This document shows positions 1 to 14,990 of a stretch of DNA of 64,000 bases, in pieces (position 1 is the stretch's first letter; the number at the start of each line of letters is the position of its first letter). The notes beneath the pieces are model-generated. The model was not told where the DNA came from, did not search any database, and worked only from the letters and a program-made list of their open reading frames with translations. Position numbers and translations under genes: made by a program. The DNA is from an uncultured Gammaproteobacteria bacterium (GTDB lineage: Bacteria > Patescibacteriota > Microgenomatia > UBA10105 > UBA927): positions 183,751 to 247,750 of the forward strand of contig CAYUKU010000001.1 of assembly GCA_964445435.1 (NCBI GenBank). Reading direction: 5' to 3'.

Positions 1-426
1 TTTTGCCACCGCGGTGGCGGCAGCATAGGCCATTTGATTTGTCGTTGACACGGCAAAGTTCTCAAATGTTGCGTCGGGCCGGATGTGAAGCTTGCGTGCG
101 AGCGCCTCGGTGTTTATGGTTGGAGACTGAAGGGTGGGCGCAAAAAGCGGACCCGCCTCACCCTCTTTCAGTGTTTCCTTTTTGGGAATTACGGTAAACA
201 CGAGGCTTGTGTTTTGGTTGGTGTGGTGGTCAAGGATGCTTTTTACGAGCGAGTAGTATCGCGTTTCAACGAGCGTTCGCATAAGGGGGCTGGTGAAGGC
301 TATGGTGGCAACAGAATCAACGACAGACACAAGGCGCGCGGTGGCAAAGTGCGTTTGAAACGTAGCTTTTGATACAGAGAGTTCGATCTCAGCTAATACT
401 GATTTCCAAAGTTTTTCAATATCCAT
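1..426 (-). CDS. dnaA: Chromosomal replication initiator DnaA, N-terminal 142 aa only. The gene runs off the window start.
   Basis: The minus strand of 1-426 translates as an open frame: MDIEKLWKSVLAEIELSVSKATFQTHFA...TFENFAVSTTNQMAYAAATAVAK. This matches the DnaA N-terminal domain and the conserved segment just before the Walker A (E. coli [23 protein letters not shown]). Not in the ORF track because it is truncated. An in-frame stop lies upstream at about 496-498. Confidence 0.85.
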   Translation of the reverse strand, partial: MDIEKLWKSVLAEIELSVSKATFQTHFATARLVSVVDSVATIAFTSPLMRTLVETRYYSLVKSILDHHTNQNTSLVFTVIPKKETLKEGEAGPLFAPTLQSPTINTEALARKLHIRPDATFENFAVSTTNQMAYAAATAVAK

Positions 427-574: not shown

Positions 575-3385
575 GTGTTTCGAAAGACACTCATTTTTGT
601 CTGCGTAGCGCTTTCTGTTTTCGTCTCCCTGTCGTTTCGTCGCACGGCTAATTGGCGCATCCACACGGGGTCTGCAGTGGTGCGGCCGGTTGTTTTTACT
701 CCCAACGTCACGCTGCTTTCCGAGCAAGAAGTTCTTTATAAGAAAACCATTTATTCGGTGGAAAACGACGTTTTGCGGGCACGAGACAACAGGTCCGGAA
801 AAGAGCGCTGGCGAATTACGTTGGGTACCGGGTTTGTTTTCTCGGATCGTCCGCTCATTGCCTCAGGGCGCCTTTTTGTGGGTGACACGACGGGAACACT
901 GCGGGCCATCGGATTACACTCGGGAAAGACGTTATGGGAGTTGGCACAACAAGAGTCGCCAAAGAGTTTCCCCCGCCCGTCGGGGAGGCCCGGGTGGTTT
1001 GGGTCGATGGCACCTGAAGGATCACGCCTCGTTGTCGGTGGCCGAGACGGCCGGGTGACGTCGCTTCGACAAAATGACGGGAAGAAACTTTGGACGTACG
1101 AGGTTGGAAATCCCATCGTGAACGTGCAAAGCGAAGACGGCAGCGTGTTTGCCTTGGGTCAAAATGGCAGCGTGACAGCTCTGACTTCCGGCGGCAGACT
1201 CGTGTGGACGGAAACACAGGCGAGCTCAGCCGCGTTTCTTCTTTTCCCGAAGGCGACTTTCGGAAAGAGACTGTTGGGTCACGACGCAGGTACGGTGGTA
1301 GTCGTCACACGAAACGGCGATGTTATAGGAAAAGATACCAAAAGCGGACGAACACTCCACACAACGCATCTTGCCGCGTCCATAGTGACGAAGCCCGCTG
1401 TGTGGCAAAACTGGCTTTTTGTCGTAACAAAGGAGCCCAAGTCGAGACTCATAAAGATAGATGGAGTAACGGGCGCAATCGCTTGGAGTCGAAAGTACGA
1501 CGATGTTATTGGGGCGACACCCGTTGTGGGGTATCGCAATCCCCTTACAAGCGGGTTGTGCGCCCGAACAGAAGACGTATTTGGGGCTCTCCCGTTTTGC
1601 ATGCCCTCGGTATTCGTGGGAGACTATCAGGGCGTTTTCCGCGCTGTTGACGTAGAGACCGGTGACTCCCTGTGGAAGTTTTTCACAACTGCCCCCATCG
1701 TGTCGCCGGCGTCGTTTAAGGATAACAGCGTTGTGTTTGGAAATCTTGGCGGCGACGTATATACGGTGTTGGCCTTTGACGGCAAGATTCCCAGGCGCAG
1801 GGGCTGGCTGCGCATGGAGGTTTCCCGAACCGTTTCCACGGTGTTTAATCGGGATATTCAGGAATTCACCCTCAGATATGACCAGTCCCGTTTTAGGTTT
1901 CCCTGGAGCGATATTCTGGCGGAAGCCTCGTTTTCTCAGAAAGGACTGAGCCCCATTACGGTAAGTGGATACTATTTCGACAAAGACACATGGAAGATTG
2001 CCTTCAATCCCCCTTTCCGAGGAGAGTGGCAGTACGAGGTTCGTCTGGTTTTGCCTGACAACAGTGCGGTCGCCGAAAAAGGATCATTTGTAAGCAAAAC
2101 CTCAAGCGACGGCATGTACCTCAAAAGCATATATGTGCCGGGCGGCGTAGGAAGGTTGACTGCCGACGGAAAGCATGCGTACAGCGTCTTTGGGGTTCAG
2201 ACGTCCGAACTGGACTTTAATCGCAACGGAAACTTCCTGGACGACTTTTCGTTTGGAGTTGAATCCCCATCAACGGGATCAGCCGAAACTGAGTGTTTCT
2301 CGTGCGGTTTTCGAGGGCTTGAAGATTTCCTTACGGCGTATGCGGATGGCGGACAAGTATTTAATATGTTTCGGTGGGGTCCGAACAATGCCTCATTCGG
2401 ATTGGCGGACGCGCCGCCTTCTGCCACAGACGCGTATTATGTATTTGAGGGAAGACAAGCGGATCGTCTTATCACGTCGCTGGCAAATCACGGACTTCGG
2501 GTATGGCTGACATTTTTTGAGTCAACGGTTCCCCATCAGGCCGAATGGAGCGCGTCCCCACTGTACGAATTTTTGGCGAAACGGTATATTCGCTATCTCG
2601 TTTCCAGATACGGCGCGTATGTGAGTATATGGGAACTGACGAACGAAGCATACGTTCCGGATAGAATCGTTCAGGCACTCACCCAGTATCTTCGGACGAT
2701 TGATTTTGAAAAAAGGCCCATTACGACCAGTTGGGAGAAAGCGCACCTGTCGACGATTGAGGTCGTTTCGCCCCACTGGTATGCAGATGAAGATTCCCGC
2801 CTTTCTGACGCGGCCCTTCTAAAAGAACTGGAGAGAAGCCAAGGGAGCACCTCGGGTAAACCCGTGGTGTTTGGAGAGATAGGAAACAAGAGCGCAAACT
2901 GGGATCCAGAGTCGGGAGCGCGGATGCGCATACGCATGTGGACTGCAGCCATGCGCGGGGCCGGAGTGGTGTTTTGGAGTACCTCCCACTCAAAGCAATA
3001 TGCGCCAGTCGGGGATCCATTTGGGAATGGAAATCAATATATCGGCGAAAAAGAGCGGGAGCTCGTGCGCATCGCAAATGGTTTTTTCCGTGACATGAGT
3101 CTTGACGCGCGTCCGATAGACATTGGCGTTAACCCGGCTGATGCACGGGGATATGGGTTGGGTGACAAGCAAAAAATTATAGGCTACATCCATCGATATA
3201 GCGATCACGAGAGAAATGCCCCTATCGAGATGACCCTTCAGGTGCCCAAAAACGGAACCCTTTCGTGGTATGACACGAAAACCGGGAAGAAAATCATAAG
3301 CCAGAGGGTACCAGCCGGCAGACATGTCGTCACAAGTCCGGCCTTCCTTATAGATGTCGCGTTTGCGGTAATGCTTGATCCCTAG
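575..3385 (+). CDS. Secreted 936-aa protein with an N-terminal PQQ-type beta-propeller repeat region and a C-terminal GH5-like (clan GH-A TIM-barrel) glycoside-hydrolase-like domain.
   Basis: Signal-peptide-like N-terminus MFRKTLIFVCVALSVFVSLSF. Repeated GKTLWE/GKKLWTY/GRLVWT motifs typical of PQQ propeller blades. C-terminal IWELTNEAY (NE catalytic-acid-like) and VVFGEIGNK (nucleophile-like GE) motifs. Confidence 0.5.
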   Translation: MFRKTLIFVCVALSVFVSLSFRRTANWRIHTGSAVVRPVVFTPNVTLLSEQEVLYKKTIYSVENDVLRARDNRSGKERWRITLGTGFVFSDRPLIASGRLFVGDTTGTLRAIGLHSGKTLWELAQQESPKSFPRPSGRPGWFGSMAPEGSRLVVGGRDGRVTSLRQNDGKKLWTYEVGNPIVNVQSEDGSVFALGQNGSVTALTSGGRLVWTETQASSAAFLLFPKATFGKRLLGHDAGTVVVVTRNGDVIGKDTKSGRTLHTTHLAASIVTKPAVWQNWLFVVTKEPKSRLIKIDGVTGAIAWSRKYDDVIGATPVVGYRNPLTSGLCARTEDVFGALPFCMPSVFVGDYQGVFRAVDVETGDSLWKFFTTAPIVSPASFKDNSVVFGNLGGDVYTVLAFDGKIPRRRGWLRMEVSRTVSTVFNRDIQEFTLRYDQSRFRFPWSDILAEASFSQKGLSPITVSGYYFDKDTWKIAFNPPFRGEWQYEVRLVLPDNSAVAEKGSFVSKTSSDGMYLKSIYVPGGVGRLTADGKHAYSVFGVQTSELDFNRNGNFLDDFSFGVESPSTGSAETECFSCGFRGLEDFLTAYADGGQVFNMFRWGPNNASFGLADAPPSATDAYYVFEGRQADRLITSLANHGLRVWLTFFESTVPHQAEWSASPLYEFLAKRYIRYLVSRYGAYVSIWELTNEAYVPDRIVQALTQYLRTIDFEKRPITTSWEKAHLSTIEVVSPHWYADEDSRLSDAALLKELERSQGSTSGKPVVFGEIGNKSANWDPESGARMRIRMWTAAMRGAGVVFWSTSHSKQYAPVGDPFGNGNQYIGEKERELVRIANGFFRDMSLDARPIDIGVNPADARGYGLGDKQKIIGYIHRYSDHERNAPIEMTLQVPKNGTLSWYDTKTGKKIISQRVPAGRHVVTSPAFLIDVAFAVMLDP

Positions 3386-3387
3386 CG

Positions 3388-4398
3388 ATGTGGTACCCTA
3401 AGAAAGCTTTGAAAAAACAAGAGCAGGACATATACATCGTTATTCCCACCATACGCACACTTTCCTTTTTGCGTGATTGGGAGAGGCAGTTTGAAAACTG
3501 CTTCCTCGTTATTGTTGAGGATCATGCAAAGAGGCAAATCGAAACGCCCCAAACCCCCAGCCGTAAAATCTACCATTACGATTGGAGCGATATAGATGGC
3601 GAGTTTGGTAAAAACCGCTGGATATTCTCCCGGCAAAACGCAGGCATCCGGTCCTACGGGTTTTGGAAAGCTTATGAAATGGGTGCAGACGTCATCATTA
3701 CGCTTGATGATGACTGCTATCCCGCGGAGGCAGACTTTGTACAGAAGCACATAGATAATCTCTCCGCGAGTGCTCCCGTTCGGTGGATGACTACATTTCC
3801 GCACCCTGAGTATATGTACACGCGAGGGTTTCCCTATGAGGTCCGAAAGAAGCGTCCGGTCATGGTAAGCCATGGATTATGGTCAAATAAGATGGATATG
3901 GATGCCCAAACACAAAAACACATCGGGAACGTAAATATTCCGGCATATCCCCTTCTTCGGCAGTATGTGCCCAAAGGTGAGTATTTTCCGATGAGCTCAA
4001 TGAATCTGGCGTTTCTGCGAGATGCTGCTCCTCTAATGTATTTCCCGCTCATGGGAAGAGATCCCAGTGGAAACAATTGGGGGTTTGATCGCTTCGACGA
4101 TATTTGGGCAGGAATTTTTGTCAAAAAAATACTTGACCATCTAGAGTATGCGGTTGTGAATGGATCGCCATTTGTAGAGCACCGGAAGGCCTCTGATGTT
4201 GAGACAAATCTCGTGAAAGAGAAACCTGGACTTAAGATGAATGAGCAGGTGTGGCACTTGGTGGATCGCGTTTTTCTGACGCAGAGTTCGCCGGCGGCCT
4301 GTTATAAGGAACTGTCACAACAAATCGAATTTCCCGACACGCCGTATTTCCGTAAACTGCGAGAGGCAATGGGTATATGGGCTGAGTTATTTTTGTGA
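3388..4398 (+). CDS. Homolog of reversibly glycosylated polypeptide / UDP-L-arabinopyranose mutase (GT75, plant-type RGP/UAM).
   Basis: Colinear blocks shared with plant RGP1: IVIPTIRTLSFLRDWERQF...LVIVED, IITLDDDCY, TRGFPYEVRKKRPVMVSHGLWSN..DMDAQTQ, PMSSMNLAFLRDAAPLMYFPLMG, RFDDIWAGIFVKKILDHL, HRKASDVETNLVKEK. Confidence 0.8.
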   Translation: MWYPKKALKKQEQDIYIVIPTIRTLSFLRDWERQFENCFLVIVEDHAKRQIETPQTPSRKIYHYDWSDIDGEFGKNRWIFSRQNAGIRSYGFWKAYEMGADVIITLDDDCYPAEADFVQKHIDNLSASAPVRWMTTFPHPEYMYTRGFPYEVRKKRPVMVSHGLWSNKMDMDAQTQKHIGNVNIPAYPLLRQYVPKGEYFPMSSMNLAFLRDAAPLMYFPLMGRDPSGNNWGFDRFDDIWAGIFVKKILDHLEYAVVNGSPFVEHRKASDVETNLVKEKPGLKMNEQVWHLVDRVFLTQSSPAACYKELSQQIEFPDTPYFRKLREAMGIWAELFL

Positions 4399-4405
4399 AC
4401 GTAAC

Positions 4406-6379
4406 ATGCGGATGCTTCACGTATTGTACTCGAGAGTCTGGGTATTCTTCGGAGGCTTGTTTGCGCTTGTCCTTTTGGGCGACATACGACAGGGAGTCAT
4501 CGATGTTGTGAGTCTTGCGTTCGTGCTCTCGTTATTTTTGGTTGGAGCTCTGACGAAAGCATCGTACCTATCTCCACCCAAAAAGCTCCACTGGGCGTGG
4601 ATCGTTTTTATCGCCTTTCTTTTCGGAGGATTTTTGACGTCCGATAGCCCGGGGTACTCGGTGACCGCAATCGTGCGCTACTGCATGGCGTACCTGGTTT
4701 TTGGGTATTTTGCGTATGCAAAGGAAGAGATAGAAGCAGCGAAATTTCTCAAGGGGCTTCTCTGGTTTGCATTTATTTCCGTAGGGTTGTCATTTGTGAC
4801 ACTTGCACATAGAGATTTGGGCGGATTTTTACCGGGCATGAATCTCCTCTACCCTGCGTACGGACACAACCACGTGGTAAACATCGTGGTATTCATTTTT
4901 CCTTTTGTAGTCCACGAACTTATTGTTTCACGCAATATCGCAACAGTCGTGGCGATGACATATCTTACCGTGGCGCTTGTGTTGTCCCGCGCCCGAGGAG
5001 GCCTTATTCTTCTTTCCTTCTATTGTGGATGGTTATTTGCCAGCGTGCGCCGGCGCTTCGGTCCGGCGACGCAGATAGGTGCAACGACCGCATTGGTTGT
5101 ATTCGTCGGATTCGTTATATTTTCTCGATTTTCTGCTCCCGCAACCAAAAGCGGTCTTGCTGAGAGCAGGCTTCCCTACTGGAAGCAGGCGGGCGTGGCT
5201 ATAGCCACCCGTCCGCTTTTCGGATATGGCCCAGGGACATTCTATCTGGTGTCAAGAAGGTTCCAAGAAATTCCCGGCACACACTCGTGGTATGCGCACA
5301 GCTTCCTTCTGCAGACGCTTGCGGAGGTAGGGATTATAGGAGCTTTGGGAGTAGGATTTATTTTGGGTTACCCACTCGTTGCGATTGCCAGATCAATGGC
5401 AAAACTGAAGCGGAAGGATCCGCTCATCGTCCCCTTGTGGCACGCAGTTATTCTTGTGTTTTTGTACAGTTTGGTTGAAATGAACTTGGATTTTCTCGTG
5501 ATATGGTTTCTATTCTGGGCGACACTTGGTTTTATCCATCGGCACGCACGCGGCGATCTTGCTGACGGGATTCCCGTCCCTTTGAATGGCTTTTTCAAGA
5601 CACTTTGCGTCCTGTTGGCTCTTTTTTATCTCTCAGCGGTCGCGTCTACAGCAGTTGAGGTTATAGGGAAAGACCATACGTTTTCGTTCTTGTTGCAGCC
5701 ACACGTAACCGGCAAAGCGCTTACGTATCTTTCCCAAAAAAGCCAGGCCCAGCAATATTCTATAGGATTGCCGGAGCGCACAATTAAGTTTTTTCACAAA
5801 AATGATCCGGAAATAGCATTCAGCATGGCGGCATACGCGTCGCAATCAGGAGTCATGAAGTCCCTCCCGTATCTGTTGCAGGCTACAGATGGCGATCCTC
5901 TCAATCAGGAGTATCTTACCGCTTCTCTGGATGGGTTAGTGCGTAGTCTTCCCCAAAAAGACATCGGAATTTTGACACTACGCATGATGGCGCGGGCACC
6001 CAGAATAACGACACAGAGCAAGCTGTTTGAAATGCCCGGCATTGAAGACGATATCGGCAGAGCGCTTGTTTCCGCGTATGAGAAAGGCAAGCCGCGATGG
6101 AGCCAGTGGTACGCAGGGCTTGCGTATGTCCTGGCCATGAACGCACTGTCGGACAATCCGAAGCTCGCCGAGCAGCTCTTGTTATATGCTAGGGATGTGT
6201 ATCCGGACTTGGGTTTTATACATATGGATTTAATCCGTTTTTATGAGAGCACGCTTGGTGATCACGACGCCGCAGCGGAGGCGGCGCGGTACTGTGGCTT
6301 TTTGAATTCTCCCAAAAAACAATGTGAAGTTGAAGATAAAACACTTCCTCCTGGTGATTTCCTGTATTTGTTTATATAA
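4406..6379 (+). CDS. Wzy_C (O-antigen ligase / PglL-like) polytopic membrane protein with a roughly 230-aa C-terminal soluble extension.
   Basis: Multi-TM N-terminal two-thirds. LSRARGGLILL and HSFLLQTLAEVGIIGALG motifs (H-x-x-F/L...E-x-G) are characteristic of the Wzy_C domain. Confidence 0.65.
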   Translation: MRMLHVLYSRVWVFFGGLFALVLLGDIRQGVIDVVSLAFVLSLFLVGALTKASYLSPPKKLHWAWIVFIAFLFGGFLTSDSPGYSVTAIVRYCMAYLVFGYFAYAKEEIEAAKFLKGLLWFAFISVGLSFVTLAHRDLGGFLPGMNLLYPAYGHNHVVNIVVFIFPFVVHELIVSRNIATVVAMTYLTVALVLSRARGGLILLSFYCGWLFASVRRRFGPATQIGATTALVVFVGFVIFSRFSAPATKSGLAESRLPYWKQAGVAIATRPLFGYGPGTFYLVSRRFQEIPGTHSWYAHSFLLQTLAEVGIIGALGVGFILGYPLVAIARSMAKLKRKDPLIVPLWHAVILVFLYSLVEMNLDFLVIWFLFWATLGFIHRHARGDLADGIPVPLNGFFKTLCVLLALFYLSAVASTAVEVIGKDHTFSFLLQPHVTGKALTYLSQKSQAQQYSIGLPERTIKFFHKNDPEIAFSMAAYASQSGVMKSLPYLLQATDGDPLNQEYLTASLDGLVRSLPQKDIGILTLRMMARAPRITTQSKLFEMPGIEDDIGRALVSAYEKGKPRWSQWYAGLAYVLAMNALSDNPKLAEQLLLYARDVYPDLGFIHMDLIRFYESTLGDHDAAAEAARYCGFLNSPKKQCEVEDKTLPPGDFLYLFI

Positions 6380-6397: not shown

Positions 6398-7243
6398 ATG
6401 ATTACGATCATTGATCGGTGGAAACAACTTGCTGCCAGGCGGTTATCAAAGACATTCCTCACGCGGACCGATGTCATCATTCTTCTGTGCATCGTCATGC
6501 TTTTGGGCGTTATGGGTGTTGCGGTGAAGCTTGTGCTTCAGAAAGATACGTATGTGACTGTTGAGCTTCTGGCTTCCGGCGGAGAGTGGTGGTGGGGCGT
6601 CCCGCCTCCCTATTATTGGAATGCCCGTGATATAGTCATCGGCGCAAAGGAATATGACTCGTTTCGCAAGGTGACCTCAGAGGTTGTTGACTTGGTTAAA
6701 TACGGCGAGGACGACCGGAGATTCATGTGGCTTGAGGTAAGGCTTCTGGCGAAGAAAAACATGTTGACAAAAACATATTCGTTTAAGCAGGAAACCCTCC
6801 AGATCGGGAAAACCATTCACCTATCGCCAAATAATGTTGCCATCATCGGACAGATTGTGGGTATCGAAGGCGTTGGGAGAATGTGGAAGACCGAGTATGT
6901 TGAGGTGCAGGGGAAAGTCCGTCATATAGAGCCTTGGGAGGCAGATGCAATTAAACCGGCAGACAAAGTTTTTGATAACAAGGGGCAACTGGTTGCTGAG
7001 ATACAGGAGGTACGCGTGGAAAACTCTGACGTTATGACCACCACATGGACCGGTGACACACTTGTGCGGAAGAATCCTCTTCTTCGTGATGTGACCACAA
7101 AAATGAAGCTCCGCGTTATGAAGGATGATAGTATGCGCTACTTCAATTTCTATCAGCCAGTTGAGATAGGAAACAATATTCGAATTCAGTTCCCAGAGAC
7201 GGCAATTGAATTCAATATTATGTCTATAACGCCCGCAAACTAG
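6398..7243 (+). CDS. Hypothetical membrane-anchored protein (one N-terminal TM, extracytoplasmic domain).
   Basis: Long ORF in an operonic position. TM segment ILLCIVMLLGVMGVAV. No recognisable motifs. Confidence 0.4.
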   Translation: MITIIDRWKQLAARRLSKTFLTRTDVIILLCIVMLLGVMGVAVKLVLQKDTYVTVELLASGGEWWWGVPPPYYWNARDIVIGAKEYDSFRKVTSEVVDLVKYGEDDRRFMWLEVRLLAKKNMLTKTYSFKQETLQIGKTIHLSPNNVAIIGQIVGIEGVGRMWKTEYVEVQGKVRHIEPWEADAIKPADKVFDNKGQLVAEIQEVRVENSDVMTTTWTGDTLVRKNPLLRDVTTKMKLRVMKDDSMRYFNFYQPVEIGNNIRIQFPETAIEFNIMSITPAN

Positions 7244-8025
7244 CTCATTTTTTGAGCGATGACCCATACGCTCCACGGCGCTTGTGCGGGTTTACGCATA
7301 GAGTATGCCAAATTTCCCCAGTGAACGATCCGAAAACCAGCCAGTGAAGTGAACGCTTCAAGTTCAGGAAAGAAAAAATACCTCATGGTGTGAGTTTCGC
7401 GAAGCTTCCTCGTCTGGCCGGTTGCCGGACGGATGGTAAGCGTGTGATGCACGTCAACCGTATTAGTCGCGTGAGAGAGTTTTGGAATTTTCTGTCGAAA
7501 CACCTCTAACTGATCATTTTTGTAATGCTGCCGGACAACCCGCGGTTTTCCCAAAAAAACACCCGGTCCGTACCAGCAGTCAAATATAAAAACACCGTGC
7601 GGCTTGAGAATAGAAGCGGCTCTGCGGAAGAATTGTTCAACCTCGCGGTTTGTTTTCATGTAGCTAAGGACGTCGAAGAGAGAAACCGCCACGTCATATG
7701 TTTTTGGTGTTTTGTATGAGAGAAAGTCTCCGGTTATATACGCTATGTCTGCGGAGGCGTCGGCCGCTTTCTTTTTGGCCACTTCAAGCATTTGGGTTGA
7801 CTGATCAATCCCTGTTATCTTGGCTCCCTGTTTCCATAATTCGAGCGTGTATGCTCCCGTGCCGCACCCAATGTCAAACACTGAAATGTCGGTCCGCTTC
7901 GGGAGAAGCGCTTTGGCGTGATGGAAAATCATGCGCGTGGTTTCTTCAATCCCGCGCTTTTCGTACATAAGGTCGTAGTATGGAGCAGTCAGTGAAAACG
8001 GAAGTACGGAATGTTTTGATTTCAT
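7240..8025 (-). CDS. Class I SAM-dependent methyltransferase.
   Basis: VFDIGCGTGAYT motif I, acidic motif II and LKPHGVFIFD post-I motifs. ATGA overlap with the upstream GT4 gene. Confidence 0.8.
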   Translation of the reverse strand: MKSKHSVLPFSLTAPYYDLMYEKRGIEETTRMIFHHAKALLPKRTDISVFDIGCGTGAYTLELWKQGAKITGIDQSTQMLEVAKKKAADASADIAYITGDFLSYKTPKTYDVAVSLFDVLSYMKTNREVEQFFRRAASILKPHGVFIFDCWYGPGVFLGKPRVVRQHYKNDQLEVFRQKIPKLSHATNTVDVHHTLTIRPATGQTRKLRETHTMRYFFFPELEAFTSLAGFRIVHWGNLAYSMRKPAQAPWSVWVIAQKMS

Positions 8026-9206
8026 ACGTTACAGCAGTGCTGGGCAGTTTGTATAAGAAGTTTGCTTGTGGCGTCCCAGCTAAAGCGAGAAACGACATAC
8101 TCACGTGCGCGTTTTTTCATGGTTCGTTTTTCCTCTTCTGGAAGCGAGAAAAAATGTCCGATGCGCCTGCTTGCGCCCGCGGGGTCTGTCGGATGGATAT
8201 AAAAACCGGTAACCCCGTTGACGATTTCGCTATCATCTCCGCGACTTCGTATTACCGGGACGCCTGAGGCTTGCGCCTCGAGGACAGAAAGACTCGCTGT
8301 CGATCCTCCCGCGCTTGTCGTTGATCCTGTGTAGACGAAAAGGTCGAGAGATTGGTAATACGCGGGCAGTCGTGTTTCGTCTATGTTGCCAACGAAGCGT
8401 ACAGTGTCTGAGAGACCGTGGGATTGTATATAGGACATATACTGACGTTTGACATGCAGGTCCGTAATGCTTTCTGAAATGTGAACTACAAATTTTTGTC
8501 GCCCCTTTTTCAGTATATTTATTATTTTTAGAAAGTTTTCCGTTCCTTTGAAAATAGTATAGTCAGTGCTGTGTCCGATGACCGGGATTTTTCCAGGGTG
8601 CCTCGTGCGGGCGGGTCGGGGGAAAAATGAGTCCGTGTCAACGCCGTTGGGCAGATATGCGTTTGGTTTGCGGCCGTACGTTTCGAGAATATATTTCTGG
8701 ACCGAAGGAGTAAGGGCGGTAAGAACCGTAGCCCTATGATATGCCCATATATCAAGCCATGAGTACGCCCATTTGGCGACGCGGACGCAAAATTGGGAAA
8801 AGGGAGACAAGGAGGCTATGCGCAAGGGGTCGTAGAAAATAGCGAGCGGCTCGAAGCAGTGACATATGGTGCGGCCAGAGACGAGCACTGCCAGAAGGTT
8901 CATGGGAAAATTCGTAGCAAAGACGATTTGGTTTCTGTCAATGCTCCGCTTCAACTCAAAAAAATTCACGATAAGCGTAAGAGGGAGAAGGAGCCAGAAA
9001 AATCGGGGCGGCCTCCAAAGCACCGAAATTTTCACGCCTGCCTTCTTGTAGAGGCGTTGCCATTTCGGACTTATGGCGTGCAGATACAAAAAAACACGAT
9101 GCGTCCTGGCAACCCGAAGAAGGAGTTCATACAGATACTTCTCCCCTCCCCTGGAATAGAGGCTTTCTGTGTGAAGGACGTAGACATCAAATGCGCCCCG
9201 TCTCAT
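8022..9206 (-). CDS. Glycosyltransferase family 4 (GT-B, GT1 clan).
   Basis: EAQASGVPVIRSRGDDSEIV (E-x7-E-type donor-binding motif). Size 394 aa. Confidence 0.8.
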   Translation of the reverse strand: MRRGAFDVYVLHTESLYSRGGEKYLYELLLRVARTHRVFLYLHAISPKWQRLYKKAGVKISVLWRPPRFFWLLLPLTLIVNFFELKRSIDRNQIVFATNFPMNLLAVLVSGRTICHCFEPLAIFYDPLRIASLSPFSQFCVRVAKWAYSWLDIWAYHRATVLTALTPSVQKYILETYGRKPNAYLPNGVDTDSFFPRPARTRHPGKIPVIGHSTDYTIFKGTENFLKIINILKKGRQKFVVHISESITDLHVKRQYMSYIQSHGLSDTVRFVGNIDETRLPAYYQSLDLFVYTGSTTSAGGSTASLSVLEAQASGVPVIRSRGDDSEIVNGVTGFYIHPTDPAGASRRIGHFFSLPEEEKRTMKKRAREYVVSRFSWDATSKLLIQTAQHCCNV

Positions 9207-9982
9207 AGTTTGGTAAGTGTGCCGATGTGTTTGGCGACACGGGAAGCAATGGCGACAAGCACGCTCCCCGCGAAAAGATACACGATGCTCAGAAGAAGCG
9301 CGTTTAGCTGGCCTTGAGTGAAAATTTGGGAACCGGGAGAGTATTGCCGAATTGCCTCAAAAACGTAGGAGGAGGGCGTCAAAAACGACATGGCGTACAG
9401 CGGTTGAGGGAGTGCTGCGCGATTATAAAAGACGAGTGAGACGATCTGGACGACGGTGCTAAGCATCCAGCCCGAAAAGCTTGCACGTTCTCCGAACAAA
9501 AAAACTAATGCTATAGCAACAAGCGAGAGGGAGACGCCAAAGAGTTCAAGTTGAAAGACCCACAGAAGCGCATGAAAACCAAGCGTTGAGAAAAAAGCGG
9601 GAAACACAGCGCGTAAAATAAGCATTAGCGCGACAAGAGACAGTATAATTTTTGTCATGGATGCTGCGGTAGTGGCGAGGATGAGTTGTCCAAGCGATAT
9701 GGGCGCAAGAAGCAAATTTTGTATGTTTTTGGACGTAACGTCGTCGATAAACTGAGCCACGGATTCCTGGATAATGCGGGCAGTACAGTTCCAGTAGACA
9801 ATGCCGGTAAGGATAACGAGCGTGATGTTTGTGGCTTGTGAGGAGCCGGCCGCTTCAGAGGAAGCAAGAAGGCCGAACAAGAGCGCCTCAAAAGATGGCC
9901 ATATAAGAATTTCAATGATTCTCGCAGGGTTGCGTCGCATTGAGTAGAGGTAGTGGATATAGAGTCCCTTCAGGCGTCTCAT
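9203..9982 (-). CDS. ABC-2 type polysaccharide/teichoic-acid exporter permease (Wzm/TagG-like).
   Basis: Six-TM profile, ABC-2-like size of 259 aa, overlaps the downstream ATPase gene in an operonic arrangement. Confidence 0.7.
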   Translation of the reverse strand: MRRLKGLYIHYLYSMRRNPARIIEILIWPSFEALLFGLLASSEAAGSSQATNITLVILTGIVYWNCTARIIQESVAQFIDDVTSKNIQNLLLAPISLGQLILATTAASMTKIILSLVALMLILRAVFPAFFSTLGFHALLWVFQLELFGVSLSLVAIALVFLFGERASFSGWMLSTVVQIVSLVFYNRAALPQPLYAMSFLTPSSYVFEAIRQYSPGSQIFTQGQLNALLLSIVYLFAGSVLVAIASRVAKHIGTLTKL

Positions 9983-9987: not shown

Positions 9988-10674
9988 CTATGTACGGAAA
10001 AATTTTCGTGCTGCCGATTCGGTTATGGGTCTGCCGTCATATACGATGGATCCCTGATTGAGGATAATCATTCGCGAGCACATAGATCCGATTTCTTCGA
10101 GATTTTGGGAGATTAGAAGGGTTGCTTTGTTTTTTGTATTGCGCTTGATGAGATATCGTCGTACACGCTGCGCAAGTGCGGGATCCATATGAGCGGTAAT
10201 TTCATCGAGGAAGAGAATTTTGGGATTATTGAGAAGGGCTTTTGATAAATTGACAAAAGAGTTTTCACCTGACGAAAGCCGGTAAACCTTTTTTTGAAGA
10301 ATGGCATCAGGCATTTGGAGGTCCGTCCAGAGCGTTGTGATAAATGCTTGCCAACGGTCAACTTCGTATAAATCCGCGTACGTTGCGAGATTTTCCCAGA
10401 CACTCGCGTAACCGCTCAAACGTTGACTTGAAGATGCGTAATTCATGCTTCTGGCGATTCTGCGTCTGGCTGTTTCTTCCACGGGTACCCCGAAAAACGA
10501 AAGCGTGCCGGAGTCAGGCGAAAGAAGCCCCGTTGCGATATGGAAAAGTGTGGACTTTCCCGCGCCAACCGGTCCGGTAATCCCGACGATTTCTCCTGCG
10601 CCAACGAAAAGTGATAGATTTGATACAATACGTTTTCCGCCGAGCGTTTTGTCTATGGAAGCAATGGTTAGCAT
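9988..10674 (-). CDS. ABC transporter ATP-binding protein (Wzt/TagH-like, short form without a C-terminal carbohydrate-binding domain).
   Basis: Walker A GPVGAGKST, signature LSSGE, Walker B ILFLDE. Confidence 0.85.
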   Translation of the reverse strand: MLTIASIDKTLGGKRIVSNLSLFVGAGEIVGITGPVGAGKSTLFHIATGLLSPDSGTLSFFGVPVEETARRRIARSMNYASSSQRLSGYASVWENLATYADLYEVDRWQAFITTLWTDLQMPDAILQKKVYRLSSGENSFVNLSKALLNNPKILFLDEITAHMDPALAQRVRRYLIKRNTKNKATLLISQNLEEIGSMCSRMIILNQGSIVYDGRPITESAARKFFRT

Positions 10675-12037
10675 GAAAGAAAGATTCGCAAGTATCGATA
10701 GATTATATCTGAGACGGTATTATGCGGCAATAATATTTGCCACAATCATTATAACGACCCTTTTGTCGGTTCTGTTTGTATTTACGCTCCCCGATCCGCT
10801 TCGACCCAAGACGAGTATCGGGTTTATGAATCTCCTGATGCTTGCGGGCTTTGCAATCGCATTTCTGATGCGAGGCGGACGCATGGTCTTATTCACTCCC
10901 GCGCGTTGGGGAACCCTTCACTATGCGATCACGCTGTATTTCATTGCGGTAATGGCGTCTCTTATCGCGGCGTCAACGATATACGATAGCACCCCCTTTC
11001 GTCTGCTTTCATCGGGAGTTTTGCTCTTTTGGCTCTCTCAGGAAATACAACCCACGAAAAGTCAAAAGCTTTTCTTCGTGCACGTATTGGGGGGAACAGC
11101 CGTTGTTGTGGCGATTTTGAGCTTGCTTCAGATGGTTTTTCCCTTCCTTATGAATAGCTTTGCCGAGAAATATTTATTGGGACGTGCGGCGTATGGGATA
11201 ACGATAGAATTTCAACGCGGACGGCTGCTTCATTGGGGGGCTTTGCTTTTTATTTTTCCTTTCTTCTATTCTTCTACGCTTCTTCTTAGATGGCGATCCA
11301 GCATTTGGGTAACCCTGTATGTTGTGTTGGGATACCTTTCCATTCTGGCATCTTTGGTTATTGCGAATTTCCGTTGGACGTTTTTGGTATTTGTCATAAC
11401 TTCCTTTATGTATATCCTCCATGCGAAACGATTTTCACTTCTTTCAAGCCGGAAGCTAGCATATGTATTGTCACTGGTTACGGTAGCCACAGTTGTCGGA
11501 TTGGTTTCGGCTCGCCTTGTGCTTGGGTATAACTTGCTTGACCGATTTCTACTTCGAAACGCACATCGGGATATACAGGAAACCGCCGGGAGAATTACGC
11601 TGTACAGTCAGGCAATAACAGCGTTTCAGGCGTATCCCCTGTTGGGCGTAGGATATGGGAATTATTATTCCGTTGTGTGGCCGTTTCCTCACATGCAGTA
11701 TTTTTCAATATTCGATCAGTTTGAGCCGATTCCCGTGCCGATTGCCTCACATAATGAGTTTTATACCGTGCTCTCAGAGACCGGCATATTCGGATTTGTG
11801 TTTTTCCTTCTCATGGTGTATTTCATAGGAAAAAATATTTATTTGCCACTTTTCCGAAGTCGTTTAACCCGAGTGGATACGTTGTTGACACTCAGCATAT
11901 GGATTTCTTTCTTCGCGATTTTTTTGTATGTCTGGTTTGAGAATATTTATCCGCAGAACATTGCATATATACTCCTTCTGGGAGGGATTATGGCCCGCTG
12001 GGTAGCGTGGTCACATTCGTATGAACGGACGTCGTAG
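10673..12037 (+). CDS. Wzy_C (O-antigen ligase-like) polytopic membrane protein. The true start is uncertain (10673 or further downstream, for example about 10826).
   Basis: SHNEFYTVLSETGIFGFVFFLLMV matches the Wzy_C signature. The ORF-track start at 10445 would overlap the divergent ABC ATPase by 230 nt and is rejected. Confidence 0.6.
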   Translation: MKERFASIDRLYLRRYYAAIIFATIIITTLLSVLFVFTLPDPLRPKTSIGFMNLLMLAGFAIAFLMRGGRMVLFTPARWGTLHYAITLYFIAVMASLIAASTIYDSTPFRLLSSGVLLFWLSQEIQPTKSQKLFFVHVLGGTAVVVAILSLLQMVFPFLMNSFAEKYLLGRAAYGITIEFQRGRLLHWGALLFIFPFFYSSTLLLRWRSSIWVTLYVVLGYLSILASLVIANFRWTFLVFVITSFMYILHAKRFSLLSSRKLAYVLSLVTVATVVGLVSARLVLGYNLLDRFLLRNAHRDIQETAGRITLYSQAITAFQAYPLLGVGYGNYYSVVWPFPHMQYFSIFDQFEPIPVPIASHNEFYTVLSETGIFGFVFFLLMVYFIGKNIYLPLFRSRLTRVDTLLTLSIWISFFAIFLYVWFENIYPQNIAYILLLGGIMARWVAWSHSYERTS

Positions 12038-12986
12038 CGTGAGCGTGCATGTGGTTACGTTCAACAACGAATCGACAATTCGCGCATGTATTACGTCAGT
12101 GCGAAAGCAATCGCTTCGGGACATAACGATCCTCGTCGTGGATAACGCATCCTCCGATCGGACATGTCAGATTGTTCAATCCATGGGGGTGCCGCTTATT
12201 AAGAATGCAAAGAATCTTGGATACGCGGTAGCGCACAATATGGCAATATCCCGGACGCAAAGCACCTATGTATTAACACTGAATCCGGACGTCGTGTTGG
12301 AGAGGGACTTTTTGAGGCATATGACGGACGCGCTCGACGATAATCCCCGCGTGGGATCTGCGGCCGGACTTCTGTATCGCGTTGATCGTCTTGATGATTT
12401 CCCCGCCGTTGTAGATGGAGCCGGACTTTTCATACGAAGAAATAGGCGGCAAGGATTGCGGGAAGAAGGGCGGTTAGCTGATAGCGTCCCGCGACGGCCC
12501 GTTTCGATATTCGGTCCGGATGGAGCCGCGGCCTTTTACAGAAGAGCGATGCTTGAGGATATTCGTTTAGCCGATGAGTATTTCGATGAGGACTTCTTCA
12601 TGCACAAGGAAGATGTCGACGTGTGTTGGCGTGCGCGTCTGCGCGGATGGAACGCTTTGTTTGTTCCGCAGGCTACGGCAAAACACATCCGAACATTCAG
12701 AGCGGGACAAAGGGCGCGTGTCCCCGATGAACTGAAAGCGATGGCGGTCAGAAATCGATACCTTCTCATGATAAAGAATGAAAGTCCGGCGCTTTTCCTT
12801 CGAGACATCATCCCTATTGTGTTCTATGACATGGGAATAATGCTCTATATCCTCCTTAAGGAGCGCCGGTCGCTTGTTGCATACAGACAGGTGGTTGGCA
12901 TGGCACAAACGATGCTAAGCAAACGAAAACGGATTTACACTAGAAAAAAAGTTGCAGATACAACAATGGGCAGGTGGTTTATATAA
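12021..12986 (+). CDS. Glycosyltransferase family 2 (GT-A; rhamnosyl/glucosyl-transferase WbbL-like).
   Basis: VSVHVVTFNNESTIRACITSVRKQ N-terminal GT2 block, VVDNASSD DxD-like motif, DVDVCWR. Confidence 0.8.
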   Translation: MNGRRSVSVHVVTFNNESTIRACITSVRKQSLRDITILVVDNASSDRTCQIVQSMGVPLIKNAKNLGYAVAHNMAISRTQSTYVLTLNPDVVLERDFLRHMTDALDDNPRVGSAAGLLYRVDRLDDFPAVVDGAGLFIRRNRRQGLREEGRLADSVPRRPVSIFGPDGAAAFYRRAMLEDIRLADEYFDEDFFMHKEDVDVCWRARLRGWNALFVPQATAKHIRTFRAGQRARVPDELKAMAVRNRYLLMIKNESPALFLRDIIPIVFYDMGIMLYILLKERRSLVAYRQVVGMAQTMLSKRKRIYTRKKVADTTMGRWFI

Positions 12987-13983
12987 ACGCATGGTATACG
13001 TTGGCATTGTTTCATTTAATACACTTTCTGACCTTCCGGATTGCATCGCGGCGGTAAAACGGCAATCCCACAAAGACATTCGGATTATCGTTTTTGATAA
13101 CAACTCATCAGACGGGAGCATAATGTGGCTGAGGAGACAACGAGGGGTTACCGTTATCGAGAACTCTGAAAATATCGGTTTCGGAAGGGCCCATAACGCG
13201 ATTATCAACTCCGTGCGTCTCGGCAGAAACGATTACTATCTGGCGCTGAATCCGGACGTCAGACTTGGGCGTCGATATGTGGCTGAGCTCATTGCCATCT
13301 GCCGGACGAAGAAAGCCGATTGGGCAACAGGCAAACTCTATAAAGATGCTGCGCGTAAGGTTTTGTACAGCGTCGGCCACGGGCTTCTGCGAGACGGATA
13401 TGCAGTGAACATCGGATACGATATGCCGGATGCGGCTTATTGGAATCAAGCACGAGAAGTTTTCGGGGCTCCCGGGGCCTCTCCGCTCTATTCTGCGAAA
13501 CTAATGAAGGCGGTTTCGGACCGTGGAAGTTTTTTTGATCCCCATATGTTTATGTATTATGAGGATGTTGACGTGGATTGGCGGGCAAGACTTCTGGGGT
13601 TTCGCTGTTGGTACAATCCGCGCGCCGTTGCTTATCACCCAGGGGGAGGTTTTCGAAAAGCGCTTGAGATAGAAGCTCTCGTAAACCGATATAGGAGCGT
13701 CCTAAAAAATGCTTTTCCCCGCGATATCGTCCAATACAATATTCCGTATATTTTGGGACATATTTTTTTCCGTTTTTGCTTTTCTCCCCCAACTGGGTGG
13801 CGCTTGGCAAAAAAAGTATTCCCTCTGCTTGTAGGCCTACAGAAAGACAGGACGCGGAAAACAGTTTCAAGGCAATATATGCACGACTGGTTCGCTTGGT
13901 CGAATCACCAACGAAGCGGACAGCCCAACGATCTGTCCGGCAGATTCCGGACATTTCTCAAACAAGGCCTGGGCGCCAATTAA
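12952..13983 (+). CDS. Glycosyltransferase family 2, tandem paralog of the preceding gene.
   Basis: VYVGIVSFNTLSDLPDCIAAVKRQ, IVFDNNSSDGS, YEDVDVDWRARL. Same architecture as 12021-12986. Confidence 0.8.
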   Translation: MQIQQWAGGLYKRMVYVGIVSFNTLSDLPDCIAAVKRQSHKDIRIIVFDNNSSDGSIMWLRRQRGVTVIENSENIGFGRAHNAIINSVRLGRNDYYLALNPDVRLGRRYVAELIAICRTKKADWATGKLYKDAARKVLYSVGHGLLRDGYAVNIGYDMPDAAYWNQAREVFGAPGASPLYSAKLMKAVSDRGSFFDPHMFMYYEDVDVDWRARLLGFRCWYNPRAVAYHPGGGFRKALEIEALVNRYRSVLKNAFPRDIVQYNIPYILGHIFFRFCFSPPTGWRLAKKVFPLLVGLQKDRTRKTVSRQYMHDWFAWSNHQRSGQPNDLSGRFRTFLKQGLGAN

Positions 13984-14990
13984 GGCAGAGTTTTGAGATT
14001 GCAGGGTATGAGCTTTTGTTCCGTCAGATAATTGTACATATAGTTTGCGTATTCTCTGTGTCCGAGAGCGTTCGGGTGTCCGTCTGGATGCATGTTACCC
14101 GACGCAGAGATATCCGGAATTTTGAAGGTGACAAACGTATTTGGTCTTTCTAATGCGTGGACTTTGATTCGCGCTTTGTATTCAGATCCGATATTCGGAA
14201 GCACCATAAATATAAGCGTCCCACTGTAAGAAGCGGTAAATTCCTGCAAAATGAGGCGTTCCTGCTCCAAAATTTGCGTCGGAGAGTATTTGGCCATGAT
14301 TTCTTTGGTCGCTTTCGTCCACTCTGGCGAATAGTCTCCGGCTTTTTTAGCGACATGCTTTTCTTCTTCCGACATGGTGCGTTCAAGTTTGGCGATTACT
14401 GGAAGCGCAAGTTCGTTTATGCGGTCGCCAAGAAGGAACCATATAACCAAATCCGGCTGATATTTCACTCCCCGCTTGAGAAAGCGTTCTGAGGAGTATT
14501 GCATGTCATATCCGTATACGCCGAGATTAATGACCTCTATACGAGTTTGATCCTCGCATGATTTGCTGAACATATCTTCCAGTTGTTCGGGCCAGTTATC
14601 GGCGGTGTTAACAAACTGCCCGAACGTAAACGAATCTCCGAGTGTAATAATTCGAAATGTCGTAGGTGGTTTTTCCACGTCGTAATCAAACCTCTCATTT
14701 AACGAGTCTTTGTTGAGAGTGTATTTCGCATCATCCAGGAGCCACTCCGCTCTCTCTGTTTGCACCGTGTCGGCTGCCGGCTCATAGAAATACTTCAATT
14801 TAGAGCCCTGGGGAAATATGAGGAAATTCTTGTTTATCCGCGTAACAGGCACAGATTCACCGAGGAATTTTTCCGTTCGTCTCTTTATGATTAACGCATA
14901 TCCGACGAGTCCGAATATGCAAATTTCCGTGATAAGGACGCAAAGAGCAATGATCTTCGTGATCGGAGAGAGCACGGTATGATGATTCAT
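13980..14990 (-). CDS. Membrane-anchored SGNH/GDSL-family hydrolase (candidate glycan O-acyl transferase or esterase).
   Basis: N-terminal TM. IITLGDSFTFGQFV GDS(L)-block I. Later GxND-like and DGHPN (block V D-x-x-H-like) motifs. Confidence 0.6.
   Translation of the reverse strand: MNHHTVLSPITKIIALCVLITEICIFGLVGYALIIKRRTEKFLGESVPVTRINKNFLIFPQGSKLKYFYEPAADTVQTERAEWLLDDAKYTLNKDSLNERFDYDVEKPPTTFRIITLGDSFTFGQFVNTADNWPEQLEDMFSKSCEDQTRIEVINLGVYGYDMQYSSERFLKRGVKYQPDLVIWFLLGDRINELALPVIAKLERTMSEEEKHVAKKAGDYSPEWTKATKEIMAKYSPTQILEQERLILQEFTASYSGTLIFMVLPNIGSEYKARIKVHALERPNTFVTFKIPDISASGNMHPDGHPNALGHREYANYMYNYLTEQKLIPCNLKTLP

Follow-up and report, generated by a model that had tools for sequence, protein, structure and literature searches.

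GT75 (PF03214) has so far been a family made up of enzymes from plants, two enzymes from actinobacteria and a handful of CAZy entries that are uncharacterised. In plants, the class-2 reversibly glycosylated polypeptides (RGPs) are non-catalytic partners of class 1, which contains the active UDP-arabinopyranose mutases (UAMs); these turn the six-membered ring of a nucleotide sugar into a five-membered one. The two actinobacterial enzymes, MtdL and Hyg20, are GDP-L-Gal/L-Fuc mutases that have been characterised and for which crystal structures exist (PMC9937993), and bacterial and archaeal GT75 members were already held in CAZy, with variants of the GT75 DxD motif also reported (PMC6861824). Outside this family, a nucleotide-sugar route to UDP-L-Araf via a flavin mutase has been described in Campylobacter jejuni (PMC10615251). 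For the attachment of bacterial glycans, the PglL/WsfB-type architecture of a Wzy_C domain with a TPR region and a model that combines an ABC transporter with a methyl cap are available for comparison (PMC2943079).

The window analysed here is a 64-kb stretch of DNA, to which all coordinates refer. On its plus strand, positions 3388-4398 form an exact ORF from ATG to TGA encoding 336 aa, which we assign to a GT75/RGP-family homolog of NDP-sugar pyranose-furanose mutases, referred to below as the mutase, on the basis of PF03214, the alignment with plant UAMs and an AF2/Foldseek comparison. The initial annotation had proposed such a homolog from the sequence alone, and the profile search agrees over the full length: PF03214 matches residues 11-334 (profile positions 2-336 of 342) with 163.9 bits and an E-value of 7.6e-48, the gathering cut-off being 23.8 bits. 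The identity to the plant class-1 UAM2 of Raphanus (P0121) is 36% over 342 alignment columns (E 6e-52), and a sequence search of the PDB returned OsUAM2 (1.5e-26) and MtdL (2.5e-20). The AF2 model (pLDDT 84, pTM 0.87) has a GT-A Rossmann-like N-domain, a GT75-specific core and C-terminal helices. In Foldseek its best seven matches are all GT75 structures, with TM scores of 0.78 for OsUAM2 (8cid) and 0.66-0.71 for MtdL, as opposed to less than 0.42 for other GT-A folds. The mutase is thus a genuine member of the GT75/RGP family, with a match far beyond chance; it has neither a TM segment nor a signal peptide. An overlapping minus-strand ORF (3382-3873) was without support and was taken as spurious. 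The exact protein sequence was not on record in a look-up in which a 96% relative (P0001) stood in for it, and NCBIfam holds no model for the mutase, its Wzy_C partner or the DUF4330 protein described below.

All sequence blocks quoted in the initial annotation as typical of plant RGP/UAM proteins were found and aligned with class-1 Raphanus UAM2, namely IVIPTIR (residues 17-23), DDDC (107-110, nt 3706-3717), TRGFPY (145-150), SHGLW (161-165), SMNLAF (204-209), RFDDIWAG (235-242) and DHL (250-252). The DDD motif and the self-glycosylated Arg, on which that assignment had been made to depend, are likewise intact. DDD107-109 (3706..3714, plus strand, as for all residues here) is the DxD metal/nucleotide-sugar motif, equivalent to MtdL D109-D111 (PMC9937993); it is also kept in plant class 1 and reads DDN in the inactive OsUAM2. 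Arg146 (3823..3825), in the TRGFPY block, corresponds to the autoglycosylated, catalytic Arg of OsUAM1 (R158) and MtdL (R159), and the title of PDB entry 7yua speaks of an interconversion covalently mediated by arginine. D170-M-D172 (3895..3903) is the third DxD motif (MtdL D195/D197; DYD in plants), and R235-F-D-D238 (4090..4101) holds the Arg that contacts the beta-phosphate and ring oxygen and the sugar-binding Asp (MtdL R257 and D260). H265-R-K-A-S269 (4180..4194) contains the Mn2+-ligand His (MtdL H287) in a loop A of the plant type, H-x-K-A-S, in which H265 and S269 are invariant and K267 and A268 almost invariant; R and D stand there in OsUAM2, and H..H292 in MtdL. Across 120 matches and 72 GTDB loci, D107-D109, R146, D170, D172, R235, D238 and H265 are invariant. 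MtdL is inactivated by R159K, D195N, R257K and D260N, its activity is abolished by D87N/S and Q229A, and GDP binding is weakened or abolished by T13P and S86D (PMC9937993). Of the residues that proved essential to MtdL or to rice UAM1, the mutase keeps all except the equivalents of D87 and Q229, where it is plant-like.

Upstream of the mutase, on the minus strand and divergent from its operon, lies the N-terminal part of dnaA (31..426), detected by tblastn with the DnaA of a related locus (L003; 87% over 132 aa). The fragment is 74% identical to Gottesmanbacteria DnaA, and by its sequence the host is a Gottesmanbacteria-like bacterium of the Patescibacteria (CPR). The operon gene upstream of the mutase (575..3385, plus strand) encodes, according to Pfam, a membrane-anchored PQQ-type beta-propeller with DUF5060 and is syntenic in L001, L003 and L006. 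A link of this gene to GH140/apiosidases is kept as a side remark, since it consists of a sub-threshold Pfam match and a weak PDB match (4n0r, 0.003).

Only 8 nt past the stop codon of the mutase begins the gene of a membrane protein (4406..6379, plus strand) with a Wzy_C domain (PF04932, E 2.1e-15), 11 predicted TM segments and a C-terminal TPR-like domain as in PglL/WsfB. Its profile matched the oligosaccharyltransferase 9rmk (2.8e-8), WaaL (7tpg, 6.9e-7) and TPR proteins in the PDB. We predict a WaaL/PglL-type glycan ligase or O-oligosaccharyltransferase, with a polymerase being equally compatible. It is followed by a DUF4330 protein (6398..7243, plus strand; Pfam, just under the gathering cut-off), a recurrent partner of the mutase and Wzy_C genes. 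Pfam then identifies, on the minus strand, a SAM methyltransferase (7240-8025), a GT4 (8022-9206), an ABC-2 permease (9203-9982) and an ABC ATPase (9988-10674), a gene set that is predicted to form an ABC-transporter-dependent module for glycan assembly and export and that recurs at 57-98% identity in L001, L003, L007 and L009. Further Pfam matches are a second Wzy_C protein (10445-12037) and two GT2 proteins (12021-12986 and 12952-13983) on the plus strand, and a GDSL hydrolase (13980-14990) and a WecG/TagA-family GT (14987-15721; also NCBIfam TIGR00696) on the minus strand. With a Wzy_C gene directly downstream, glycosyltransferases near and a context that recurs in relatives, the glycan cluster envisaged in the initial annotation is supported. 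The mutase and the Wzy_C-TPR gene share one predicted operon beside dnaA, a layout that is conserved in relatives.

The initial annotation had regarded bacterial homologs as rare and uncharacterised. However, close homologs of the mutase amount to at least 1,196 clusters at 90% identity and at least 1,239 at 50% identity, mostly from Patescibacteria, and are spread over at least 79 GTDB species, and with MtdL and Hyg20 two bacterial members have known crystal structures (PMC9937993). JGI auto-annotation names the homologs RGP/UDP-arabinopyranose mutase, and no paper on GT75/RGP in CPR came up in a literature search. Such genes are common in CPR and carry the label RGP/UAM in annotation pipelines; the mutase belongs to a known enzyme family and represents neither a new mechanism nor a new kind of system. 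Within five genes of the homologs in the 79 GTDB loci, the neighbours are GT2 (20), DUF4330 (19), Wzy_C (16+13) and SDR (16), as well as GT4, ABC-2 and Bac_transf. The distance between mutase and DUF4330 is at most 5 kb in 19 of the 79 loci; for Wzy_C this holds in 34 of 79, which makes it a frequent but not universal companion, and the RGP-Wzy_C adjacency is kept in the loci of relatives. A neighbour-joining tree of 164 sequences is star-like, with MtdL distant and the mutase grouping with Microgenomates; the plants are nested among prokaryotes in a position that is not robust.

Taken together, the best explanation, to which we assign a probability of roughly 75%, is that the protein is a GT75-family mutase, catalytically competent, which interconverts the pyranose and furanose forms of an NDP-sugar and supplies a surface glycan. 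Its catalytic activity, cofactor, substrate and product fate we infer from the homologous enzymes, MtdL and plant UAMs: the GT-A Rossmann-like domain would bind the nucleotide sugar while Asp109 and His265 would hold the diphosphate with Mn2+. Arg146 would act as the nucleophile and carry the sugar transiently during re-closure of the ring, after which the NDP-furanose would be released. This donor may then be used by cytoplasmic glycosyltransferases in an ABC-transporter-dependent surface-glycan pathway; the ABC-2 pump would export the finished chain, possibly methyl-capped, and the adjacent Wzy_C-TPR protein would transfer it to an acceptor, which could be a protein, a lipid or the wall.

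As regards the sugar, the active site resembles plant UAMs rather than MtdL, so that a UDP-sugar is the most likely substrate. The plant-like determinants are P20 (MtdL T13), C110, M205 (MtdL Q229) and K267-A268-S269 (MtdL H292), and we tentatively place UDP-beta-L-arabinopyranose, converted to UDP-L-arabinofuranose, first among the candidates. Near the base and sugar, however, the pocket departs from the plants, with N84 for Asp, A85 for Ser and G86 for Ala, and of the plant pocket signature (a first DGD motif, Asp-Ser-Ala, Gly, DYD) the mutase has E-D-H, N84-A85-G86, S204 and DMD instead. The substrate specificity of the plant enzymes is therefore not simply transferable to it. UDP-D-galactopyranose, yielding UDP-D-galactofuranose, comes second, and it seems rather unlikely that this or another common UDP-hexose is the physiological substrate of an enzyme of the same class and mechanism that replaces the flavin UGM. 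UDP-D-Galf is the commonest furanose donor of bacteria, and A85 and G86, being smaller than plant Ser and Ala beside C4/C5 of the sugar, might leave room for C6; plant Ser/Ala/Gly states, however, return in some more distant bacterial GT75 members. Rice UAM1 has weak mutase activity on UDP-Gal (PMC6861824), although the closest characterised relatives of the mutase by sequence are UDP-L-Ara mutases.

The gene neighbourhood bears on the same choice. A motif scan for UDP-glucose dehydrogenase (UGDH) was negative in the 64-kb window and within 10 kb of 87 homolog loci, tblastn with two SDR probes found no SDR epimerase/decarboxylase (UXS/4-epimerase-like) in the window, and the cluster around the mutase lacks genes for UDP-Ara precursors. 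The lack of clustered UDP-Xyl/UDP-Ara genes, together with generic GalE-like SDRs that lie at most 5 kb away in 15 of 79 loci, would suit UDP-Gal, but these SDRs do not resolve as GalE: their NCBIfam matches are all far below the cut-offs, and their best PDB matches, close to each other in E-value, are a mix of UDP-GlcA 4-epimerase, GalE, UXS1 and GDP-Man 3,5-epimerase. The neighbouring glycosyltransferases show generic GT2/GT4 similarity, apart from one weak GlfT1-like match in a 3-locus cluster. Among longer homologs, a Rosetta-stone search returned intein, HNH domain and GT2_4 fusions and found no fusion to precursor-pathway enzymes. A DPA-type (UbiA) arabinose route was also considered and set aside, the UbiA protein of the window being a generic prenyltransferase without a match to decaprenyl-phosphate phosphoribosyltransferase. 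The contrast drawn in the initial annotation with this actinobacterial route is a loose one, because the DPA route leads to D-Araf, whereas a UAM would give L-Araf. UDP-L-Araf is, moreover, known from C. jejuni (PMC10615251).

It is improbable that the protein is not a mutase in vivo and instead glycosylates itself as an RGP, acts as a GT-A glycosyltransferase or assists Wzy_C as a partner without catalytic activity. The conserved Arg is autoglycosylated in GT75, and class-2 members are retained despite being inactive (PMC6861824); the autoglycosylation is, however, now read as a step of the mutase reaction, its covalent intermediate (title of 7yua; PMC9937993). At every residue that tells class 1 and class 2 apart the mutase has the active form, none of the substitutions of the inactive class 2 (D109N, H265R, K267D) being present. 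A physical complex could also account for the close and conserved link to a single membrane protein, but the mutase has no membrane or signal segment of its own and the majority of the loci lack the pairing. Least of all do we expect a GDP-L-galactose/GDP-L-fucose mutase of the MtdL/Hyg20 type, as in actinobacterial antibiotic pathways: the fold and the core catalytic residues are common to both and the better PDB matches of one SDR near the L006 homolog include GDP-mannose 3,5-epimerase, but the MtdL residues for GDP, L-Fuc and L-Gal, of which D87 and Q229 are essential, are replaced (T13 by P20, S86 by N84, D87 by A85, Q229 by M205, H292 by S269), the similarity to MtdL is confined to residues 87-294 and weaker than that to the plant proteins, and in the tree MtdL stands apart on a long branch.

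Patescibacteria are largely uncultured episymbionts whose surface chemistry is essentially unknown, and a conserved, origin-proximal operon with a predicted furanose-forming mutase and glycan ligase offers a concrete starting point for tests on a CPR surface glycan. In a broader and more doubtful reading, the plant-type, metal-dependent GT75 mutase and the PglL/WaaL-like ligase, as the first operon beside dnaA, would constitute a conserved furanose-glycan or O-glycosylation system of Microgenomates/Patescibacteria, with prokaryotic GT75 ancestral to the plant UAMs; the glycan, on the cell surface or linked to protein, might contain L-arabinofuranose. If so, CPR surfaces would bear a sugar that is elsewhere characteristic of plant walls, and the enzyme making it would be of a type so far known in bacteria from two antibiotic pathways only. 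The enlargement of GT75 to more than 1,000 prokaryotic clusters bears on the origin of plant UAMs and on the sourcing of enzymes that make NDP-furanoses.

Compared with known systems, the locus shares with S-layer/pilin O-glycosylation (WsaB, WsfB, PglL, PilO) and WaaL the Wzy_C domain, the multi-TM core and the C-terminal TPR-like region, and the ABC-2 exporter, methyltransferase, initiating Bac_transf and WecG/TagA genes occur here too; the similarity to solved OTase/WaaL structures is limited to E-values of about 1e-7 to 1e-8, and to our knowledge no GT75 mutase is known from the S-layer/pilin model systems. The flavin-dependent UGM and UDP-arabinopyranose mutases (Glf; C. jejuni HS:15.16) also convert an NDP-pyranose to an NDP-furanose for a bacterial surface polysaccharide, but have an unrelated fold and use FADH2 as opposed to Mn2+/Arg. 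The four UDP-L-Araf genes of C. jejuni form a cluster (PMC10615251), whereas no precursor genes cluster with the window mutase. MtdL (Marinactinospora) and Hyg20 (Streptomyces; PDB 7xpr-7xpv, 7yua) are bacterial GT75 enzymes of the same fold (TM about 0.7) with common Mn2+ ligands, catalytic Arg, sugar-binding Asp residues and beta-phosphate Arg. However, they are only about 22% identical to the mutase in a core-only match, differ in base and sugar contacts (T13/P, D87/A, Q229/M, H292/S) and serve antibiotic pathways, whereas the mutase sits in a surface-glycan cluster. Rice UAM2, a class-2 RGP, is the best PDB match in both structure and sequence but lacks mutase activity; it carries DDN, an Arg where the metal-binding His would be and an Asp in place of Lys267. 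With the plant class-1 UAMs (OsUAM1/3, AtRGP1-3) the mutase shares a collinear full-length alignment, the DDDC, RG(F/Y)P(F/Y), SHGLW, MNLAF, R-x-DD-x-WAG and H-x-KAS blocks, the base-loop Pro, the Met at the MtdL Q229 position, the residues of the active class (DDD rather than DDN; loop-A His and Lys) and a single-domain cytosolic form. It differs from them in E-D-H for DGD, Asn-Ala-Gly for Asp-Ser-Ala before the conserved Arg, Ser204 for Gly, Arg266 for Ser and DMD for DYD, and in its setting, a glycan operon of a bacterial (CPR) host.

The gene at positions 3388-4398 (+) is an ATG to TGA open reading frame of 336 aa, whose translation matched nearly the full Pfam profile PF03214 (RGP) with 163.9 bits and an E-value of 7.6e-48 (residues 11-334, profile positions 2-336 of 342); in the NCBIfam profile search, no model matched it. 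The best PDB sequence match was the inactive rice class-2 protein OsUAM2 (8cid, E 1.5e-26, full length), followed by the bacterial GDP-L-Gal/L-Fuc mutase MtdL (7yua/7xpr, E 2.5e-20, residues 87-294 only). The class-1 UAM2 of Raphanus sativus (P0121), a database sequence from the protein collection, was used as plant comparator, and another class-1 sequence served solely as the probe to retrieve it. P0121 is 36% identical over the whole length (E 6e-52), and the alignment reproduces the blocks IVIPTIR, DDDC, RGFPY, SHGLW, MNLAF, DDIWAG and DHL. An AlphaFold2 model based on 29 homologs (mean pLDDT 84, pTM 0.87) was compared with the PDB using Foldseek, where the top seven matches were OsUAM2 (TM 0.78) and six MtdL entries (TM 0.66-0.71), and the next were ordinary GT-A transferases with TM below 0.42. 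Profile, alignment and fold thus confirm the RGP/UAM-like protein described in the initial annotation, whose family assignment and functional logic hold. The protein has every testable feature of GT75 membership, lacks the MtdL-type specificity features and carries the plant class-1 signature positions in part only. It is most suitably classed as a new, as yet uncharacterised GT75 clade from bacteria (CPR), which most probably works like plant UAM.

Bacterial homologs had been regarded as uncharacterised, which does not apply to MtdL, for which structure and mutagenesis are published (PMC9937993). Its DxD motif is Asp109-111, with Asp111 and His287 binding Mn2+; Arg159 is the autoglycosylated and essential arginine, and Asp195, Asp260 and Arg257 are each essential. 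The sugar is contacted by Asp87, Ser228 and Gln229, of which D87 and Q229 are individually essential for GDP-L-fucose activity, base selectivity is governed by Thr13, Asn42 and Ser86, with T13P and S86D weakening or abolishing GDP binding, and loop A carries Arg289 and His292 (PMC9937993). Residues were compared in an alignment of the window protein with 120 database matches, 72 homologs from GTDB genomes, eight plant class-1 UAMs, OsUAM2 and MtdL. The predicted DDD/Arg region (D107-D109 and R146) is conserved and, like D170, D172, N206, R235, D238 and H265, (near-)invariant across the bacterial clade and plants. OsUAM2 departs at D109 (N), H265 (R) and K267 (D), where the window protein has the active-type residues. 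Plant-like rather than MtdL-like are P20 (MtdL T13), C110 (N112), M205 (Q229) and loop A with K267-A268-S269 (MtdL N-E-H292). N84-A85-G86 differs from both plants (D-S-A) and MtdL (S86-D87), S204 is shared with MtdL where plants have G, R266 replaces a plant S, and H46 stands against D in plants and N42 in MtdL.

The effects of T13P and S86D in MtdL make Pro20 and Asn84 an argument for a pyrimidine nucleotide, UDP, with UDP-L-arabinose as the default substrate by homology; provided that the protein is a mutase, we assign this substrate a probability of about 0.45. The smaller A85/G86 pair would also allow a hexose, for instance UDP-D-galactose, and on the same proviso UDP-D-Gal or another UDP-sugar is a tentative but credible substrate. 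A GDP-L-hexose is very improbable for such a mutase, as the MtdL-essential D87 and Q229 are replaced by Ala and Met, which argues against an MtdL-type substrate. Arabinose, as originally proposed, is unproven, since a motif scan for the UGDH active site was negative both for the window and for the sequence up to 10 kb from each of 87 homolog-carrying loci. Two SDRs from neighbouring loci, used as tblastn probes, had no match in the 64-kb window, and the comparisons made assigned no specific identity to the SDRs beside some homologs. The contrast previously drawn with Actinobacteria, whose DPA route leads to D-Araf and not L-Araf, conflated these two sugars and overlooked the nucleotide-sugar route of C. 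jejuni. There, the UDP-L-Araf pathway genes for UGDH, UXS, 4-epimerase and a flavin mutase are clustered (PMC10615251), whereas no precursor genes were found in the window; the precursor of the putative UDP-sugar mutase may be made elsewhere in the genome, or is perhaps a common sugar, for example UDP-Gal.

With the mutase as query, a word-indexed search at E <= 1e-5 yielded at least 1,196 clusters defined at 90% identity, and the best 120 of them are 57-96% identical to it; the named ones among these belong to Candidatus Gottesmanbacteria, Woesebacteria or 'Patescibacteria group', and many carry the JGI label 'reversibly glycosylated polypeptide/UDP-arabinopyranose mutase'. Among 1.84 billion representatives at 50% identity, an exhaustive phmmer scan recovered 1,239 proteins at E <= 1e-3, of which 775 reach <= 1e-10 and 322 reach <= 1e-30, and a pattern-seeded scan in which each GTDB species was represented by one genome located 79 loci. 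The supposed rarity of bacterial homologs thus holds only against the background of all proteins; within the CPR lineage the gene is common. Explicitly Patescibacteria are 36 of the 79 loci (Gottesman-, Woese-, Roizman-, Chisholm-, Davies-, Shapiro- and Paceibacteria), and a minority falls in Chloroflexota/Dehalococcoidia, Planctomycetaceae, WOR-3, Chlorobium, Deltaproteobacteria, Thermoanaerobaculia and Methylacidiphilales. Another 25 are titled 'uncultured Gammaproteobacteria/Pseudomonadales/Nevskiaceae' (MAGs with such titles include L009, L010, L019, L023, L027, L028, L031, L034-L038, L042, L047-L049, L052, L060, L061, L063, L066, L067, L071 and L076). These labels are probably wrong, because L009, L010, L019 and L061 show the CPR synteny dnaN-dnaA-RGP-Wzy_C and one MAG is named HK-STAS-PATE-15. 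At least four GT75 paralogs lie on separate contigs of one Planctomycetaceae MAG (L083-L086). Four homologs from the phmmer scan (P0301, P0285, P0361, P0366) have additional domains: one is interrupted by an intein with a LAGLIDADG domain, one has an N-terminal HNH, and two of plant/algal type have a fused GT2_4. The neighbour-joining tree of 164 sequences is star-like, with the mutase inside a Microgenomates clade, MtdL on a long separate branch, and both plant classes (1 and 2) forming a single clade within the prokaryotic representatives, a placement that is not robust. Bacterial and archaeal GT75 entries are already reported in CAZy (PMC6861824), and in the searchable literature no paper linking RGP/UAM/GT75 to CPR was found.

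The window appears to derive from a Gottesmanbacteria-like member of Microgenomates. A dnaA N-terminus of 132 aa (31-426, -), assigned by DnaA similarity, is 87% identical to its nearest metagenomic relative and 73-74% to two Gottesmanbacteria MAGs, and the window further encodes YidC, Jag, L25 and a DUF4012 protein. GC skew is positive over the entire window, and on the + strand the first unit next to dnaA is the mutase operon; Gottesmanbacteria-type genomes share this origin-proximal position. Directly upstream of the mutase, the operon has a membrane-anchored protein of 936 aa (575-3385, +) with an N-terminal TM, a PQQ-type beta-propeller and DUF5060, and the mutase start lies 3 nt past its stop. 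The propeller protein has a sub-threshold apiosidase/GH140-like match; apiose is a furanose. At two other loci (L006/L011), the propeller and DUF5060 module is fused to a WecG/TagA GT within a protein of 1146 aa. After a 7-nt gap from the mutase stop, a 657-aa Wzy_C protein starts (4406-6379, +), followed by a DUF4330 protein.

The order dnaN-dnaA / (propeller)-mutase-Wzy_C (640-675 aa)-DUF4330 is kept in relatives at 96%, 76%, 63%, 60% and 60%, including two Gottesmanbacteria chromosomes. Within five genes of the mutase, the families seen most often across the 79 loci are GT2 (20 loci), DUF4330 (19), Wzy_C in two groups (16 and 13), one group of SDR epimerases/dehydratases (16), GT4 (14 and 14), ABC-2 ATPase (14) and permease (14), Bac_transf (12) and methyltransferase (10). 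Using HMMs built from these groups, a Wzy_C protein was found within 5 kb at 34 of 79 loci, at 30/52 among homologs at least 45% identical and at 24/45 with at least 5 kb on both sides; the pairing is frequent, not obligatory. Association with surface-glycan synthesis, as these neighbours show, is a family trait. In a Roizmanbacteria-like subgroup (L021, L023, L055) the context differs: the mutase precedes genes for Methyltransf_24, PLP-dependent decarboxylase-like (~415 aa) and QueC-like proteins.

The placement of the mutase beside a Wzy_C protein in a glycan cluster with GTs is seen in the window. Genes for a SAM methyltransferase, a GT4 and an ABC-2 permease with its ATPase converge on the operon. 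Beyond these come the second Wzy_C protein with two GT2, a GDSL hydrolase and a WecG/TagA-family GT, then two pairs of DegT aminotransferase and GFO/IDH/MocA, additional GT1, GT2 and GT4, another ABC-2 pair, an initiating transferase of Bac_transf type, a PMT-like GT-C, the third Wzy_C protein and a Wzx/flippase-type protein. Together, 4406-47790 (~45 kb) holds three Wzy_C proteins (657, 530 and 396 aa) alongside two ABC-2 exporter pairs, a single Wzx-type flippase and the PMT-like GT-C. Because the ORFs called at 9988-10674 (-) and 10445-12037 (+) share 230 nt, the latter probably starts further downstream. At 30054-35056 lies a FAD protein that scores 478 bits, above cut-off, with NF005548 (PRK07208 family) and is weakly similar to the UDP-galactopyranose mutase N-terminus. 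It adjoins an unannotated protein of 467 aa, a prenyltransferase of the UbiA family and a radical SAM/SPASM protein, and the group may be a separate module of lipid-linked sugar modification; the UbiA protein is a generic prenyltransferase and offers no evidence of a DPA-like route. Nine sizeable ORFs (165-674 aa) in 15722-20315, 25720-27730 and 38385-43229 lack a Pfam match, and NCBIfam had none for those also compared with it; for a tenth (41643-43229), DUF7305 is the sole match. GC is 0.54 in the 38-44 kb stretch against about 0.45.

The conserved origin-proximal operon of mutase and PglL/WaaL-like ligase is the most useful outcome, as an entry point to CPR surface glycans. The 657-aa Wzy_C protein has 11 predicted TM, a helical, TPR-like C-terminal region of ~250 aa and two conserved Cys (C630, C640) near the C-terminus. 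A profile built from it and 12 orthologs matched the oligosaccharyltransferase 9rmk (2.8e-8) and the O-antigen ligase WaaL 7tpg (6.9e-7), and its C-terminal part many TPR proteins. This is the same build as in the O-oligosaccharyltransferases PglL and WsfB, which combine Wzy_C with a C-terminal TPR (PMC2943079). The gene set fits an ABC-transporter-dependent glycan, possibly methyl-capped, that is ligated outside the membrane, a pathway exemplified by the Geobacillus S-layer glycan (PMC2943079).
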